64,000 bases of DNA, taken from assembly GCA_045863235.1 (NCBI GenBank), contig BTUM01000021.1, positions 1 to 64,000 on the forward strand, read 5' to 3'. Position numbers and translations under genes: made by a program. The notes under the pieces were generated by a model that saw only the letters and a list, made by a program, of their open reading frames with translations, was not told where the DNA came from and made no database searches. Source of the DNA: Candidatus Xenobia bacterium. GTDB taxonomy: Bacteria; Vulcanimicrobiota; Xenobia; Xenobiales; QWHO01. Positions 8,369 to 15,162 of this stretch are shown here, in pieces (the stretch's first letter is position 1; each line of letters begins with the position of its first letter).

Positions 8369-8833
8369 TCAGCTTTGGCCGTCGAGCGCGGGGCTCCTGC
8401 CAAGTTTTTTCTCCAGCACGATTCGGGTTTCGGGACCAGCCAGGGTGCCGATGATCTCAAAGCCGCTGAGAATGGACAGGATCAACATGCCCGGGTATCG
8501 GTTGCGGGTCTGGCTTCGCACCGTGCGAAAGCCGGCCCTCTCCAGCAGGCGGTGCTGTCTGGCCATGAGGGCTCGGGCGATGCCGCGACGCCGGAAGTCC
8601 GGGTCCACCCCGCCAATCCAGGAGTAAAATCGGCCCGGTCGCTCCTCGTAGCCGAACTTGTAACCCACCACCCGGCCTTGAACCAGGGCCACCAGCAAGA
8701 GCTTGCGAGGCCGCCCCCGCAGCACGGACCGAAGTCGCCGCTGGCTCAGGGGGCCGAGCACCTTTCGGTGCAGGGCCAGCGCTTCAGGAAGATAGCGACT
8801 CAGCCGCTTACCCTTGAGTCTCAGGATCCGCAT
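8369..8833 (-). CDS. GNAT-family N-acetyltransferase
   Basis: Acetyl-CoA motif GGVDPDFRRRGIARALM. Confidence 0.88.
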   Translation of the reverse strand: MRILRLKGKRLSRYLPEALALHRKVLGPLSQRRLRSVLRGRPRKLLLVALVQGRVVGYKFGYEERPGRFYSWIGGVDPDFRRRGIARALMARQHRLLERAGFRTVRSQTRNRYPGMLILSILSGFEIIGTLAGPETRIVLEKKLGRSPALDGQS

Positions 8834-11800
8834 CGTAAGAGCTCCTCAATGTTCGGGCCAGTCGGGTCAAGAAGAGCATCTCGTGCTCGTCGGTGATGTC
8901 CGGCCGGGCCTGGTTCAGCTCGCAAAACAGATGAGCCGCCAGCAGCACCAGGCAACCCGGGTCCTGGCTGTGGTGGGCCCGGGCGTATCTGACCGCCTGG
9001 TCGGTCCAGTTCAAGATCGGGACCTCCCCCTTCCACAGGATGGCGGGACCAAGCAGATCGGCTTCCCACAGAGTGTTGCTGCCCAGACGCTCGACCAGTT
9101 GCAGCCAGGGTCCCCGAGGACGCTCGGGGCAGAGCAGGCTGAACTCACGACGGAGCGAGGCGAGCAGGCGCCGCTCCGGGGTATCTTTCAGGCTCTCCTC
9201 CTGGCGTTTGCGCCCGCGTCGCTCGACCCGGTCCTTTCTGGCCGGACGCGTGTCCGGTACCAGCTGCTCCAGGCCCGACAGGCTGCTGGAAGCTCGTTTG
9301 AAGAAGGCATCCGCCGTCTTGTCCAACCCGCTCAGCACGCGGTGCCAACCGGAAGCGACCAGGCGCAAGCTCCTGTCGGCCAGCGTCGCCACCTCCACCC
9401 GCTCGAGTCGCGACTTGCCGACCAGGGCCACGGCCGCCTCCCACTCCAGACTGTTCGGCTTGAGCACGGGCAGGACCGAAGGCTCCCCGGTGGTCGGTGA
9501 GCCCGGGCGCTCGAGGTAGGCTACTTTGCCGCGCGAGGCCTCTTCCAGCAGGGCCGAGGCCGAGGCCAGCCGACGTCCGGCAGCGGGAAACAGACTCAGG
9601 GGCAGGACTTGCTCCAGGGCTCGACCGACCGGATTGCTGGAGCCCAGATCGCGCCGGTGGGATGCCAAGAACTCCAGAAGGATGAGACGCGAGGCCTGAT
9701 CGGGCTGGCCCGGGTAGGCTCGAGCCAGGAGGTCGATCAGGCTCACCCGGAAGGCGGCCAGCTCCTTGACTTGAGCGCGACTGAGCTTGACCGAATCGTG
9801 CAGGTCGGAGAGCTCGAATCGACCCTTGACCCATCCTGCCAGCCCGTGCCCACCGATCTCGGTCAGGGGGCTCTCGCCGTCGAGCAAAATGATGGTCGCC
9901 TGCCTGGGCGAGCGCGGCAGACCCAGGCGACCGGTCAGCTCTGAGCCCTGCAACTCTCCCTCCACCAGGCAGGCCGGGAGGCGAACCTTGAGGCCGGCCG
10001 CCCGGCGCCGGTTCTTTCGGCGAACCTCATCCTTCATCAGCTCTTCGGTATCCGAGTGCGTCGGGCGGCTGACCAGCCCTGTCAGAAGCTTTCGCTCGCG
10101 CGGGCCGGCGCAGACAACGGGACGGTCGCCCAGGGGAGCGTAGGGATAACCTGGCTCGATCACCGGGACAGACGGGTGCAGCTTGAGCCTCTCTTTCAAC
10201 TCCTGAAAGCTGAGTGGAGGGGCGCAGTGCATCGGCACCAACGGCAGGGTAGCAAGCTGATCGAGCACCGGGCGCGGCAGGTTGGTGCTGAGAAGGTGCA
10301 GCAGCATCCAGGCGCGGGCACTGCCGGGCGTGGCCTGGCGTGCCGCCTCCAGGGCCAGTTCGCCCAGGGCCGCTCGCACCTGCTCGAGCATGGCCTGAAA
10401 GGTGGCGTCGCGCTTGATTTTGCGATTGGCCATCCGGGTCAGCCCGTGGGGACCCACGATGGCCCGGGCCGGCCCTGGCAGAAGGCCGGGCAGGGTGCCC
10501 ATTCCGGCCACCTCCAACACTCCAGTGAACTGATCCTCGCTCAGTCCGACCTCGCCGAATCGGGGGCCTGGCAGGGAGCGCCTCAATTCAAGAGGTTCCT
10601 TCAGGCGCAGGCTCGAGAAGTCCGGGGAAGGAGCCCCGGTCGTGGGCTCGGGTGCGCTCAGGTCAACCCGGGGAACGGGTGGCGGCAAGGGCGGTTGATA
10701 AAGCTCGAGCTGCAATTCCGGCAAGAGCTTCTCGAGCGCGGATCGGTCCGGCTTGAAGAGAACACGCGGACCGGTGGGGCCGTCTCTCTCGGTCATCAGA
10801 AGCCGCCCGTGCTGGCGCAGCTCTGCCTCCAGCTCGGCCAGCGCCATCCGCTCCGTGCCTCCGCGACTGGGAAAGAGCGCCAGTGAGGAAGCTCTTGAAG
10901 CGAGCTCTGGATTTCGGGCCAGAGCTTGCAGCAGGGCCGGTTCCCAGCCGGGAAGCTCGGAAGGGGCGTTGCTCAGCTCGCTGGCCAGCCGCTCGAAAGC
11001 GTCTCGCTCGGCCTCGCGCAACCGGTCCACCACCTCCTGCCAGGCCCGATCGCTCTGCACCCTCTTCCAATCCGGGGTGGGACTGAGCCGGGGGCTGTCC
11101 ACGATGGCGTCGAAAGGCCAGATGGCAGGCTGCAAGCCGCGCTCCTCCAGCTCCACCCCCTGGCGCAGAACGGTTACGTGGGCGCGCGGGGGATTGCCGG
11201 CCTGGCGCAGGCGCAGCTCTCCTTTGATGTCGTCGAAGCTGAAGGCGTGGGTGTGGGGAGCCTGGCCCAGACGAGCCTGGCGAGGGTTGGCCAGCCGGAA
11301 AGCCAGCTGGTTGAGGTTGTCGAGGACGGGACGGGCGTCGAACAACTTCAGCCCCAGCTCCTCGCGCAGCATGGACTGTACTGGCGCGGTGGCACGCACG
11401 ATGGGATAGTCGGGCACCGCCTCGGGGGGCAGGTTGTCGGCCAGGGCCGGCGCGTGAGTGGAGACGACACCCACCCGCGCCTGCCGGCGCAGGCTGTCCA
11501 GGCTGGTTCGGCTGGCGGTGAGGGTTGGCAGCAGCTCGAGACGGGCAGCCGGCGACCTGGCAGGGTCCTCGAGCAAGCTCAAGAGCAGTTGATCGTAAAC
11601 CCGCGCGTCCTGACCCGCCGTCTCGGCCAGCTGGCGGTAGAGCTCGACCACCTTCTTATTGAGCAGGCTCCAGGCCTGGCGATACTTCTTGCAGTCCGGA
11701 TCGGGGCCGCTGAAGTCCTTGAGCACGCTGACCTCATCGAAATCGAGCACGGCCACGAAGGAGAGCTTGTCCAGGGTGGAGCTGCGCAGTAGCTTGCCCT

Positions 11801-13076
11801 GCAGCAGAACGTGCAGGTGCGAGCCTTCTGGGGAGGCTTGATAAGGGATCCCGACGGCTAGAAAGACCCCCTGGCTCTCAGCCGTCGTTCGGACGGCATA
11901 CTCGTCGGCGGGAAGCTCGCGCGGTCGCGGAGAGCTCTCCCAGCGAAGGCGATTGTTGTGGGCTGTCACCTGGGCGAGCAGCTCCTCGCGCACGTCGCGC
12001 AAGGTCATCTCGCGCTTCTCGAGGAAGTGCCGCGTTTCCAGGCCATCGAGGTAGAGAATGCGCAGGCCTTCCGGCTCGAACGCCAGGCGCATCTGGGTCA
12101 CCGGCACGTAGCCGAGCCGCTTGCGTTGCTCTTCCAGCTCGCGGTAGCTGTAACGAAGCTGGTGGGGACCGGGGAAGAGGGGCAGGCAATCCACCAGCTC
12201 GCGCCAGCGACCCTTCTGGCGCAAGGCGCCCAGACTCAGGAAGAAAAGACGATGGCGCTGCAGGAGCTCGGCATCAGACCCACAACGCTCAGCCAGGCGA
12301 GCCAGCTCTTCAAGAGTGTCCTGCTCGACCTTCTCGAGCGCCTCCTGGTAGACGGTGTCCTCCACCACAGCCGAATGGGAAGCGTTCAGGCTGAAGCGGT
12401 CATCCTCCACCACCGCCCGCACCGGCAGGAGAGCGGGCCTGAGTTGCTGGCGGATGATTCCGTGCAAGACCAGGAAGATTTCGCCCGACTCATCGCATGA
12501 GAGCAGCTCCGTGGCGGCGGGCTGGCTCAGCAACCGTCCCTCCAGTCGAACCGGTCGGCGCGAGAAGCGGGCGTGGCTCCTTGTCAGCTCGATCTCGCTC
12601 GAGTAGCTGGCCTTGCGCAGCACGCCGCCCCCCCGCTCGATCAAGAGACGATGCCGGGTGTACGAGCCGGCCACCAGCTGTCGTTTCTGACCGCGCAACT
12701 CCAGCGCGACCCCGGCGGGAGACTCCAACAGGACGCGTCGTGGCTGCAGGCGGCTGAGAGCATTCAGGCCCACTGCCAGGTAGCGCAGGGCCGGGTGCGT
12801 GCCCTCGGCCACCAGCAGATAGTCTTCCAGGTTCTCGAGATCGGCTCTCAGAAGCGGGGTGCCGCCAAAGCAAAGCTCCAGCCCATCAGGGGTGAGGTCG
12901 ACTTCCAGCTCCGGACTTCCCCCCGCGAAGGCTGCGGCGATCAGCTCGAGGATGTAACGCTCGGGATCGGTCAGCTGAAAGCGGGCCATCTTGGAGCGAG
13001 CCTTCTCCACGTCGAGCGTGAAGTTTCCCCGCGAGTCGAAGCGCCCGGCCTGGCGCAGGGTGTCCAGCAAGCTCAC
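8808..13076 (-). CDS. 1422-aa protein: degenerate Hsp90-like GHKL domain plus five Hsp90-middle-like repeats
   Basis: GTG start overlaps the TGA of the upstream gene (GTGA). YILELIAAA sits where RELIQN is expected. Five recurring (R/D)AxVxxxxL and LxLxP...SxxEL motifs. Confidence 0.7.
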   Translation of the reverse strand: MSLLDTLRQAGRFDSRGNFTLDVEKARSKMARFQLTDPERYILELIAAAFAGGSPELEVDLTPDGLELCFGGTPLLRADLENLEDYLLVAEGTHPALRYLAVGLNALSRLQPRRVLLESPAGVALELRGQKRQLVAGSYTRHRLLIERGGGVLRKASYSSEIELTRSHARFSRRPVRLEGRLLSQPAATELLSCDESGEIFLVLHGIIRQQLRPALLPVRAVVEDDRFSLNASHSAVVEDTVYQEALEKVEQDTLEELARLAERCGSDAELLQRHRLFFLSLGALRQKGRWRELVDCLPLFPGPHQLRYSYRELEEQRKRLGYVPVTQMRLAFEPEGLRILYLDGLETRHFLEKREMTLRDVREELLAQVTAHNNRLRWESSPRPRELPADEYAVRTTAESQGVFLAVGIPYQASPEGSHLHVLLQGKLLRSSTLDKLSFVAVLDFDEVSVLKDFSGPDPDCKKYRQAWSLLNKKVVELYRQLAETAGQDARVYDQLLLSLLEDPARSPAARLELLPTLTASRTSLDSLRRQARVGVVSTHAPALADNLPPEAVPDYPIVRATAPVQSMLREELGLKLFDARPVLDNLNQLAFRLANPRQARLGQAPHTHAFSFDDIKGELRLRQAGNPPRAHVTVLRQGVELEERGLQPAIWPFDAIVDSPRLSPTPDWKRVQSDRAWQEVVDRLREAERDAFERLASELSNAPSELPGWEPALLQALARNPELASRASSLALFPSRGGTERMALAELEAELRQHGRLLMTERDGPTGPRVLFKPDRSALEKLLPELQLELYQPPLPPPVPRVDLSAPEPTTGAPSPDFSSLRLKEPLELRRSLPGPRFGEVGLSEDQFTGVLEVAGMGTLPGLLPGPARAIVGPHGLTRMANRKIKRDATFQAMLEQVRAALGELALEAARQATPGSARAWMLLHLLSTNLPRPVLDQLATLPLVPMHCAPPLSFQELKERLKLHPSVPVIEPGYPYAPLGDRPVVCAGPRERKLLTGLVSRPTHSDTEELMKDEVRRKNRRRAAGLKVRLPACLVEGELQGSELTGRLGLPRSPRQATIILLDGESPLTEIGGHGLAGWVKGRFELSDLHDSVKLSRAQVKELAAFRVSLIDLLARAYPGQPDQASRLILLEFLASHRRDLGSSNPVGRALEQVLPLSLFPAAGRRLASASALLEEASRGKVAYLERPGSPTTGEPSVLPVLKPNSLEWEAAVALVGKSRLERVEVATLADRSLRLVASGWHRVLSGLDKTADAFFKRASSSLSGLEQLVPDTRPARKDRVERRGRKRQEESLKDTPERRLLASLRREFSLLCPERPRGPWLQLVERLGSNTLWEADLLGPAILWKGEVPILNWTDQAVRYARAHHSQDPGCLVLLAAHLFCELNQARPDITDEHEMLFLTRLARTLRSSYDADPETQG

Positions 13077-14572
13077 GGGCTTTGCCTCCGTTTGATTGCC
13101 GCCTGCAAAAGCTGGCGCTCGAGCTTGCGCCCGGTTTCCAGCAATACGGCTCGGCCCAGGAGATAGCCTGCCAGCGAAGGATCGCGAGTCACCACTCGGG
13201 AGAGGTCCTCCACCAGGGGATGCTGCAGATTGACCAGCACTTGCTTGCCCCCTTTCCCGACGGGCTCGGCTCTTCCGGGCGTCGAGCAGGTCAAGCTGAC
13301 TCGGGTAGCCAGGCGGCCACACTGGCTGAAGTCGCCACCCTGAAGCCTGGGTCCGGGCAGAAGCCGGTTGGCAACCTCCAGAAGCTGGGCCAGGTCATCG
13401 CCTGGCTCGAGTGGTTGAGCCAGAAACCAGTGCTCTTCGGCCAGGGGCACCTGGAAGAACTGGCGAGCCAGCTCCAGGGACCAGGGGGCTTCACCCGTCA
13501 ACACGGCCACCCGCTGGCTCATGAGACTTTCGATCAGCGGGCCGGAGGACGGGCTCCAGGCGACCTGGGAAGCACGTTTCAGATCGCCAAGGGCGAGCAT
13601 GCCACCGTGGCTCGGGAAGAGCTTGAGCTCGAGGCATTCTGGGGGGAGATCCTTGTGGCGGCCGGCCAGGTCGACTGCCAGCTTCCACAGGTGGACGTCG
13701 TCCGGGCGGCTGGCCAGCTCTTGAAAGAGCCGGACCGGAAGCAGCCTGGTCACGGCTCGATCCAGCACTGCCATGGCTTTTTCGTAGTGCTTGTCTTGCA
13801 CCACGTTGTCGCGGGTCAGCGTATGCTCGAGATACATCGAGCGCAGCTTGAAGCTCACTCCCGGGCGAGGCGAGCCTGTGCCCTCGAGCAAGGTCAGTCC
13901 GCGGTTGTAGAAACCATAGAACGGCTCCTCGTCGAGACTGGGGGCCGCCACGACCTCGCTGCCAGGCACCTCCAGGCGCACTTCGGCCGGCAGTCCCAAC
14001 TCGAAAGGCTGATTGATGGGTTTACCGTTGAAGCGGATCTCGACATCACAATGCTTGCACCAGTAAACCACGGTTTGGAGGCACTCCTGGCGAAACTTGT
14101 CGAATCGGTTGCGCGCGACGGGAATGTAGCTGGTCACCCGGGTCCCCTCGATGGGCTCGTGGCGCTGGAGCCGTTCAAAGCTGCGGTCCGGGTGGAACAG
14201 TACCCGCCAGTACTCGCCGTCGCGCCCTGAATCGACCACGACCGCTTTGGGATTGGGGGCGAAGATCGAAACGAAACCGATACCGAACTTGCCGATGCGG
14301 GTGAGATCCCCCTCCTTGGTAGAGCTGAACAGGCGGGTCAGCTGGGTGTCGATCACCTCGCGGTTCATGCCTTCGCCCCAATCGGTGACTTGCACCCGGG
14401 CACAGGACTCCCCCTCGTCGTAAACGACCTCTACCTCGATCCGGTTTGTGGCGGCGTCCAGCGAGTTCTGGATCAGCTCGCGCAGAAAGGCCAGCGGCTG
14501 GCTGAACTGCTGGACCAGGGTATCGAGTGCCTCGACGCTGGCTTGAGGTGCGGGACGAGACTTCTTTGCCAT
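13073..14572 (-). CDS. HtpG/Hsp90-like GHKL ATPase, 499 aa
   Basis: FLRELIQNSLDA, VTDWGEGM, IGKFGIGF, GTRV; middle-domain LTRDNVV; C-terminal VNLQHPLV. Confidence 0.88.
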   Translation of the reverse strand: MAKKSRPAPQASVEALDTLVQQFSQPLAFLRELIQNSLDAATNRIEVEVVYDEGESCARVQVTDWGEGMNREVIDTQLTRLFSSTKEGDLTRIGKFGIGFVSIFAPNPKAVVVDSGRDGEYWRVLFHPDRSFERLQRHEPIEGTRVTSYIPVARNRFDKFRQECLQTVVYWCKHCDVEIRFNGKPINQPFELGLPAEVRLEVPGSEVVAAPSLDEEPFYGFYNRGLTLLEGTGSPRPGVSFKLRSMYLEHTLTRDNVVQDKHYEKAMAVLDRAVTRLLPVRLFQELASRPDDVHLWKLAVDLAGRHKDLPPECLELKLFPSHGGMLALGDLKRASQVAWSPSSGPLIESLMSQRVAVLTGEAPWSLELARQFFQVPLAEEHWFLAQPLEPGDDLAQLLEVANRLLPGPRLQGGDFSQCGRLATRVSLTCSTPGRAEPVGKGGKQVLVNLQHPLVEDLSRVVTRDPSLAGYLLGRAVLLETGRKLERQLLQAAIKRRQSP

Positions 14573-14634: not shown

Positions 14635-15078
14635 TCAGGCCGTGGGGGCCAGGACGCGGACGACCTGCATCTTGTCGCCCTGGCGGATCTTGTCCACCAC
14701 GTCCAACCCTTCCACTACCCGGCCGAACACGGTGTGCTTTCCGTCGAGGTGGGGTTGGGGTGAGTGGCAGATGAAGAACTGGCTGCCGCCCGTGTCGGGT
14801 CCTGCGTGGGCCATGGAAAGGCTACCGCGCAAGTGTTTGTGAGGGTTGCCCTTGGTTTCGCACTTGATCTTGTAGCCAGGTCCTCCGGTGCCGGTACCCA
14901 GCGGGCATCCACCCTGAATCATGAAGTTATCGATCACCCTGTGGAAGGTCAGGCCATCGTAGAAGTTCTTGGAAATCAGGTCGAGGTAGTTCTTGACCGT
15001 GCCGGGCGCTTCCTGGTCGAAGAGCTCCAAAATCATGGTGCCCTTGTCGGTCACCATCTCAATACGCGGATTCGGCAT
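14635..15078 (-). CDS. Cyclophilin-type peptidyl-prolyl cis-trans isomerase
   Basis: [51 protein letters not shown] before ATG 15078. Confidence 0.96.
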
Positions 15079-15162
15079 AAACGCGCCTCCTTTCTTGGAC
15101 CTGGGCCGAGTTCGTGGCGTGGCCGGCAGTTCCTCGGAGCTGGTCATGATTGTTCATGATCC

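Follow-up and report, generated by a model that had tools for sequence, protein, structure and literature searches.

A strandless Hsp90-like ATPase and its multi-module pseudo-ATPase partner in a Candidatus Xenobia genome

Gene pair and feature organization

The window is a 64,000-nucleotide (nt) stretch of Candidatus Xenobia DNA (positions 1 to 64,000 of contig BTUM01000021.1, assembly GCA_045863235.1) that carries two coupled genes on its minus strand (Table 1). The first encodes a 499-residue Hsp90-like ATPase of the GHKL type. The second encodes a 1422-residue pseudo-ATPase, hereafter the partner, and begins at a GTG codon that overlaps the TGA stop of the ATPase gene in a GTGA junction. 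The two subunits have lost complementary parts: the ATPase has no N-terminal swapping strand, and the partner has neither an ATP site nor the catalytic middle-domain Arg. A preliminary description had reported both reading frames and their stop/start overlap; these were recovered as reported, and all of its quoted motifs (GHKL, Arg loop, dead N-domain, repeat, and C-domain) were located in the translations. A 1504-residue version of the partner, opened 82 codons earlier by the open reading frame tool, was dropped because homologues start at MSLL. The five closest partner homologues are 1379–1423 residues long.

Table 1. Features of the ATPase and partner genes, in window coordinates
Feature	Positions	Strand	Evidence
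Intact Hsp90-like GHKL ATPase, N-M-C, without N-terminal swapping strand	13073–14572	−	Pfam, alignment, AF2, fold match
ATPase N-domain, residues ~1–190; edge strand 131–136 and lid T79 take partner strand in model	14003–14572	−	AF2, complex model
ATPase middle domain with catalytic-loop Arg254	13418–14002	−	Alignment; hhalign to HtpG LNVSRE loop, probability 96.9
ATPase C-domain (LNxxHPL)	13073–13417	−	8oxu fold match; profile match to partner C-domain
Pseudo-ATPase partner: dead N-domain, five middle modules, C-domain	8808–13076	−	Profiles, model, fold match
Donor strand, residues 11–22 (G-x-F19-T-L-D)	13011–13046	−	Phe conservation; core of modelled interface
Dead GHKL N-domain, residues ~1–185	12522–13076	−	hhalign to ATPase, probability 97.7; fold match
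Middle module 1, residues ~186–395; catalytic Arg replaced by His	11892–12521	−	TRAP1 N+M fold match
Middle module 2, residues ~396–605	11262–11891	−	HtpG middle domain 2gq0 fold match; module HMM
Middle module 3, residues ~606–795, then low-confidence Pro-rich linker 797–817	10692–11261	−	Module HMM, model
Middle module 4, residues ~826–1035	9972–10601	−	Module HMM, model
Middle module 5, residues ~1036–1240, most diverged; modelled as far as residue 1200	9357–9971	−	Module HMM, E 1e-5
Partner C-domain, residues ~1300–1412, recurring N..l..vtD..E motif	8841–9179	−	Profile match to ATPase C-domain
AF2, AlphaFold2; HMM, hidden Markov model; N, M, and C, N-terminal, middle, and C-terminal domains.

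The ATPase

GHKL is the sole domain that Pfam finds in the ATPase (HATPase_c_3, E 2e-10), with no match to PF00183. Residues E32, N36, D64, G66, G68, G94, G97, G99, G143, and R254 are invariant in all 45 aligned ATPases, which were chosen by hand from 120 listed of 1143 homologues. The AF2 model has a predicted local distance difference test score (pLDDT) of 90.9, and its top Foldseek matches are TRAP1 and Hsp90 (E 2e-21). In VIA-align, it superposes on GRP94 (Z 20.0, 360 aligned residues, root-mean-square deviation (rmsd) 5.8), TRAP1 (Z 19.3, 441 aligned, rmsd 13.5, spanning residues 3–499), and HtpG (Z 15.2, 427 aligned, rmsd 12.8, residues 9–498). The TRAP1 and GRP94 matches and the ten invariant residues bear out the earlier claim of an Hsp90-like ATPase with intact GHKL motifs and a middle-domain Arg.

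Chains of MORC2, the topoisomerase ParE, and MutL also match with Z 13–17 and end near residue 306 (residues 2–306), and past the first half of the middle domain only Hsp90-family chains align. Residues 313–498 match the Hsp90 middle and C-terminal chain 8oxu with a middling score (Z 6.2, 166 aligned, rmsd 10.3), and the end-to-end alignments with TRAP1 and HtpG give the model a C-terminal domain of the Hsp90 fold. The ATPase has the build of an Hsp90, yet it is not an HtpG by sequence, falling below the equivalog cut-offs of NF003555 (29 bits vs 371) and NF010683 (34 vs 455). A paralogous operon in the same genome (L080:3459-8275, G000:C62) encodes an ATPase with an insertion of ~120–150 residues in the middle domain and a partner with a beta-rich extension behind its C-domain.

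The pseudo-ATPase partner

The partner matches no Pfam, NCBIfam, or PADLOC family above cut-off. In its dead N-domain, the DxGxGM motif is replaced by (D)GxP and the Gly-rich box by RxLAxG. The position of the ATP-binding Asn is occupied by Ala, Cys, Gly, Ser, or Thr in 42 of 42 partners, and Asn is found in none; the catalytic Glu is retained in 18 of the 42. The middle-loop Arg occurs in 1 of 62 partner first modules, and the equivalent position of later modules is mostly aromatic (Trp 65, Phe 35, Tyr 10 of 177). The N-terminus of the large protein had been described beforehand as a dead GHKL domain, and the loss of the Asn agrees with this.

Behind the dead N-domain, two repeat motifs recur at residues 219/440/655/870/1079 and 298/513/732/944/1160. 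The five tandem repeats of the preliminary description are thus confirmed as five modules by HMM, and its spacing of 210–250 residues is corrected to a measured 209–221. The modules are pairwise only 15–24% identical, and neither self-BLAST of the partner nor pairwise BLAST reveals repeats or homology. An HMM built on module 1 matches the four further modules with E 5e-17, 4e-20, 4e-19, and 1e-5; its seeds are the first 520 residues of partners, which leaves the module-2 match not fully independent and those of modules 3–5 independent. The same HMM gives 183 matches in 59 partners, where fivefold shuffled sequences give 3 and reversed ones give 1, and finds up to six further modules in relatives. 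In a two-sequence search, an all-module HMM also picks up the one middle domain that the ATPase has (E 2e-10), in line with the single module copy formerly assigned to the small protein.

The model of partner residues 1–1200 repeats one secondary-structure unit (pLDDT 84.5, predicted template modelling score (pTM) 0.39). Residues 19–362 superpose on the N-terminal and middle domains of TRAP1 (326 aligned, Z 16.5, rmsd 4.6). For module 2, the match is 2gq0, the middle domain of E. coli HtpG (193 aligned, Z 8.9, rmsd 5.1). These matches give the proposed Hsp90-like fold of partner and repeat a structural footing; modules 3–5 are assigned to this fold by profile and secondary structure. The C-domains of ATPase and partner are related (hhalign probability 89.4, E 2e-6, 65 columns), as their similar motifs had suggested. 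Six HtpG sequences match the dead N-domain and module profiles weakly (probability 0.6 and 35, respectively), and it is therefore the fold, with the ATPase as a bridge, that provides the link to Hsp90.

Among the best 150 of 5071 profile matches, the commonest architectures are N-M4-C (40) and N-M5-C (37), 109 partners have a C-domain, and partners extend to 12 modules and 3000 residues. Of the 29 representatives from the 150 listed that were scanned with Pfam, 28 show no accessory domain. In the Atlas, partner residues 1–600 retrieve unnamed clusters first and HATPase clusters at 0.94–0.95. The dead-domain profile matches 3571 clusters at E ≤ 1e-10, some of which are active ATPases or belong to a GHKL-transglutaminase sister system.

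Complementary loss and modelled heterodimer

In closed Hsp90, the N-terminal strand crosses between protomers (PMC4381864). A Phe of this strand, located 25 residues ahead of the catalytic Glu (Glu-25), is found in 6 of 6 HtpG sequences. The same Phe (F19 here) is present in 39 of 42 dead partners and in 150 of 150 partners of a set ranked by the same profile. It occurs in 0 of 119 ATPases, 24 of which are too short. The strand region is the best-conserved part of the dead partners.

A complex of the ATPase, partner residues 1–385, ATP, and Mg was modelled with a score of 0.68, and the best of three controls scored 0.00. Among solved complexes, 116 of 157 attain this mark, compared with 2 of 215 mismatched pairs; these counts are a rough guide here, given the use of own alignments and the presence of ATP and Mg. 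The runs have at least 75% of contacts in common, with partner pLDDT of 81–84. In the model, partner residues 11–18 lie antiparallel to ATPase strand 131–136, F19 touches T79, and partner residues 232–233 are in the interface. ATPase strand 131–136 aligns with the Hsp90 SFTVR strand, which lies next to the first strand. The asymmetric heterodimer of the preliminary description is thus reproduced as a model, with an interface that is N-terminal and formed by strand donation.

Dead subunits in the host genome

In the host genome, a multi-module partner follows each of the three ATPases. The dead proteins number 22 in all, 19 of which lie outside the three operons and are scattered among unrelated genes. 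The ATP-binding Asn is present in 0 of the 22. A C-domain is detected in four and not in the other 18, so C-domain pairing, from which dimerization had been expected earlier, is not the general link. Most paralogues without a detected C-domain have 350–670 residues and combine a dead N-domain with a variable insert and a single, partial middle module. TPR arrays lie above the Pfam cut-off in two host dead paralogues and just below it in a third. In 16 relatives, there are at least 23–25 matches per genome among the matches listed, including a few ATPases. The dead N-domain is therefore a large family of stand-alone paralogues, which lay beyond the view of the preliminary description. One dead paralogue (L098:2964-4403, G000:C107) has a hydrophobic Gly/Ala-rich end that falls below the hydropathy threshold used and may be a membrane anchor.

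Distribution and paired evolution

The locus set comprises 79 loci from the best 80 of 384 confirmed matches. The partner gene lies directly downstream of the ATPase gene, mostly overlapping it, in 63 of 73 assessable loci; in six further loci, the downstream DNA ends within 400 nt. One of the partners counted (L007) is a 152-residue fragment. Co-occurrence of the two genes, a check proposed beforehand, is thereby established. Named carrier lineages are the Vulcanimicrobiota (Xenobia), Myxococcota, Bradymonadales, and Elusimicrobiota, with Plesiocystis pacifica, Enhygromyxa salina, and Paraliomyxa miuraensis as cultured carriers. In the host phylum, the dead domain occurs in 28 of 121 genomes; the ATPase is found in all 28 of these and in 0 of 20 tested from the 93 negatives. 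The ATPase is also found in 42 of 201 genomes from the Plesiocystis phylum. Two families were sampled with 16 genomes, all of which have the system.

A canonical HtpG accompanies the system in 22 of 28 carriers. The host genome (97.6% complete) gives no HtpG match though both sampled congeners have HtpG, and its absence may be an assembly gap. Replacement of HtpG by the system was considered and rejected, as most carriers have both.

The ATPase and partner trees are in agreement across 62 pairs (Mantel rho 0.49 vs a maximum of 0.17 on shuffling), with the caveat that these are quick trees and related genomes are not independent. The nearest ATPase neighbor is among the three nearest partner neighbors for 54 of 62 pairs, and five pairs of paralogues from one genome are widely separated in the ATPase and the partner tree alike. 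The pairs move as units, and partners have a mean tree distance of 3.4 vs 2.0 for ATPases. Six Xenobia-type ATPases with no adjacent partner (L008, L009, L013, L018, L020, and L021) form a clade with a Shimodaira–Hasegawa-like approximate likelihood ratio test (SH-aLRT) value of 86, and they could serve stand-alone partners.

Seven loci (L025, L026, L050, L069, L073, L074, and L079) have one ATPase gene followed by 2–5 dead-partner genes in a row. A single 1834-residue record (P0279) joins ATPase and dead partner in one frame, which could reflect a lost stop or an assembly error; an apparent fusion at L055 is due to frames merged by runs of N and was not counted. Among the 28 largest neighbor clusters of the 79 loci, there is no methylase, helicase, or nuclease. 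Genes of an upstream cassette occur in 19 of the 79 loci, for example L013:4170-7984. They encode a coiled-coil protein (10 loci), a 350-residue protein (18), and an AAA+ ATPase whose Walker B motif is odd (11). All three genes are present in seven loci. The 350-residue protein has no usable Atlas match, and the cassette has no match in the host genome.

Proposed mechanism

The interpretation preferred here, to which an even chance is assigned, is that the pair forms a half-active asymmetric clamp of the Hsp90 type, in which one motor works with an exchangeable dead specificity adaptor for protein clients. The ATPase would supply the ATP site and the middle-domain Arg, and the partner would supply the N-terminal strand, which would pair with the ATPase sheet at its exposed edge. 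Partner Phe19 and the module-1 loop would contact the lid and first helix of the ATPase, and one ATP would be bound per dimer. Since the ATPase has lost the strand, and the partner retains it and contacts the lid through F19 in the model, closure very probably occurs between unlike subunits. The best fold matches, TRAP1 and GRP94, are protein chaperones, which favors this interpretation.

The N-terminal joint probably lets a few motors serve many dead subunits, with the part behind the dead N-M core (modules, inserts, or TPR arrays) determining what is gripped. The weakest element, with perhaps an even chance of being correct, is that the clamp folds, assembles, or remodels proteins or protein complexes as its substrates, and that the C-domains of operon partners also pair while the extra modules loop out and widen the clamp. 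Because the modules are only distantly alike, a multivalent grip on one ligand is doubtful. More tentatively, the strandless motor may be served by a genome-wide library of at least 20 dead N-M subunits that plug in by donor strand, each with its own substrate surface made of inserts, TPR arrays, or up to twelve middle domains. If true, this would be a third mode of operation for an Hsp90 clamp and an adaptor-programmed bacterial chaperone or remodeller found across four phyla, as well as a natural experiment in which one ATP site is sufficient for the Hsp90 cycle.

Several points weigh against the half-active clamp. Closed Hsp90 and TRAP1 dimers have already been solved, and the passing score of the complex may reflect likeness or memory only; the sequence asymmetry of the Phe strand is independent of the complex model. 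The low pTM of the long-arm model leaves C-C contact and loop-out geometry putative. Ten of 73 loci have no adjacent partner, binding of stand-alone paralogues to the ATPases is predicted from the shared strand, and no client, co-chaperone, or conserved neighbor in the host points to a substrate. In addition, removal of the first strand of yeast Hsp90 raised its ATPase activity and eased N-terminal dimerization (PMC4381864), so the ATPase may act as a homodimer with no donor.

Alternative explanations

The yeast result also favors a different arrangement, in which the strandless ATPase is a homodimer inhibited or tuned by the dead proteins, or the pseudo-ATPases homodimerize by their own strand swap and serve as scaffolds. 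The partner-less ATPase clade and the excess of adaptors over motors (22 to 3) fit this role, but most loci show translational overlap with one cognate partner and the pairs evolve together, and 1–12 extra modules would be needless for a pure inhibitor; such a role is unlikely. Unlikely too, if a little less so, is a system for invader sensing or conflict, in which variable dead subunits recognize phage or prey proteins and the ATPase relays the signal or clamps. Its appeal lies in the lineage-specific expansion of the family (the per-genome counts above, in 17 genomes among the matches listed), in the faster divergence of partners than of ATPases, and in the membership of many carriers in predatory groups. 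Several GHL families are also antiviral (10.64898/2026.09.30.754977). Against it, Pfam scans find no nuclease or other effector domain, PADLOC gives weak N-domain matches to TmtA and nothing for the partner, and phage matches are absent, with one weak plasmid match. The largest neighbor clusters hold none of the enzymes named above, and the system is not patchy but present throughout the two sampled families. The defense module offered as an alternative in the preliminary description thus finds no support in neighbors, PADLOC, or phage and plasmid matches.

A nucleic-acid clamp, in which N-N and C-C closure together with the long arm would ring DNA as in MutL, MORC, and topoisomerases, draws on the MORC2, MutL, and ParE matches of the GHKL+S5 part of the ATPase and on a weak match of the dead-N profile to MutL in the PDB (E 8e-4). 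Module 4 and the linker before the C-domain are basic (Lys+Arg 31 vs Asp+Glu 21, and 14 vs 9), but the remaining modules range from neutral to acidic, Hsp90 chains alone match the C-domain and the second half of the middle domain, and DNA enzymes are missing from the 28 largest neighbor clusters, which makes this explanation quite improbable. The lowest probability, that of a very unlikely case, is given to a molecular ruler or tether whose array length (1–12 units) sets a distance in a large structure, with the ATPase as assembly switch and the upstream cassette as part of the structure in some lineages. The range of module number between fixed N- and C-terminal ends, the aromatic residues at the Arg position of later modules, which suit a packing role, and the cassette genes in 19 of 79 loci speak for a ruler, but most host paralogues have one module or part of one, and the cassette is absent from the host genome.

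Relation to known systems

The pair is a real and conserved variant of the Hsp90/GHL clamp, which would work like Hsp90/HtpG without belonging to it by sequence cut-off or by strand. It shares with Hsp90, HtpG, TRAP1, and GRP94 the N-M-C organization, the GHKL motifs, the middle-domain Arg, the LNxxHP motif of the C-domain, and, as modelled here, an N-terminal strand swap at closing. Unlike these proteins, it is built from two unlike genes, one of them dead, with strand and ATP site split between them, tandem middle domains, and 15% identity. The GHKL catalytic residues of the family are found in the ATPase (45 of 45) and not in the partner (Asn 0 of 42), and the ATP-binding subunit does not carry the swapping strand (Phe 0 of 119).

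Sacsin, Tiamat, and NO VEIN are likewise Hsp90-related GHL proteins. Sacsin repeats Hsp90-like N-terminal and middle regions in one chain (PMC9880540), whereas the partner repeats the middle domain only, behind one dead N-domain. The SACS family PF25794 reaches 30.2 bits against a cut-off of 32.8, over residues 15–105 only, and matches to the TmtA profile cover ~90 of its 1300–1800 positions. Neither DUF3684 nor a nuclease was found in the pair.

MORC, paraMORC, and MutL proteins share the GHKL+S5 module. Eukaryotic MutL heterodimers are asymmetric, and the full-length MutL profile TIGR00585 gives 35 bits vs 180, over residues 25–97 only. Some prokaryotic MORC operons have a second GHKL gene (PMC2292703). 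ParaMORCs keep their catalytic motifs intact and are encoded beside methylases, helicases, and nucleases. The pair described here differs in both respects, with motifs intact in one subunit and no such neighbors among the 28 largest clusters, the smaller ones not having been inspected. In Hsp90-like antiphage proteins, variable C-terminal parts are proposed to act as ligand sensors, as summarized in 10.64898/2026.09.30.754977. Unlike these proteins with HD or calcineurin-like domains, the pair has no fused effector, and its variable part lies on a separate dead subunit. No nucleotide-hydrolysing effector domain precedes GHKL in the ATPases: the GHKL domain opens within the first ~55 residues in 119 of 119 homologues, and Pfam gives no match to such an effector. 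MoxR AAA+/vWA chaperone-adaptor systems, a possible parallel, combine a conserved ATPase motor with variable adaptors; the folds are unrelated (AAA+ ring vs GHL clamp).

A sister pair in the Plesiocystis pacifica genome (L109:3350-8139) also couples an active GHKL gene to a dead one, with a HATPase and transglutaminase enzyme beside a short pseudo-ATPase. The dead-N profile matches this partner with E 1.7e-12, and by eye its Glu-25 strand position holds Leu. The L109 partner is short; in the present pair, the motor is soluble and the partner bears the variable part. The coupling of an active to a dead GHKL protein thus appears to be a more widespread arrangement.

No description of this pair was found in the open literature searched; subscription papers and bioRxiv supplements lay outside it, and the pair may be listed there. 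The parts of 10.64898/2026.09.30.754977 covered describe GHL ATPases as homodimers or A2B2 tetramers and make no mention of Myxococc-, Vulcanimicrob-, or heterodimer. With one site live, the other dead, and the strand on the dead side only, the natural pair offers a ready test of asymmetry and two-step hydrolysis in Hsp90. Other work on this question uses engineered heterodimers. Neither Pfam nor NCBIfam has a model for the dead domain, and its profile would give a name to a large set of hypothetical proteins from Vulcanimicrobiota, Myxococcota, and other lineages.

Genomic surroundings

The genomic setting of the pair is housekeeping. Upstream on the same strand lies a cyclophilin gene (14635–15147, Pfam) that ends 62 nt before the ATPase gene. 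Downstream, Pfam identifies a GNAT acetyltransferase, a TolC-type protein, DUF4349, an S4-FtsJ methyltransferase, MlaD, and MMPL. The GNAT gene (8369–8833) is on the same strand and shares 26 nt with the end of the partner gene; the GNAT, ATPase/partner, and cyclophilin genes are possibly on one transcript here. Neither cyclophilin nor GNAT is among the 28 largest neighbor clusters of the 79 loci, and the attractive idea of cyclophilin as a co-chaperone was set aside for this reason. Promoter and terminator counts are at chance level. Contigs of an RNA library (run X1) cover both genes in 30 of 30 bins; strand, level, and co-transcription cannot be read from contigs, none of those listed spans the gene junction by a meaningful length, and they were not used as evidence. 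Elsewhere in the host genome, a 2691-codon frame (G000:C121:4702-12774) encodes an intact GHKL domain of the sacsin/Tiamat type and, by eye, a C-terminal transglutaminase-like motif.

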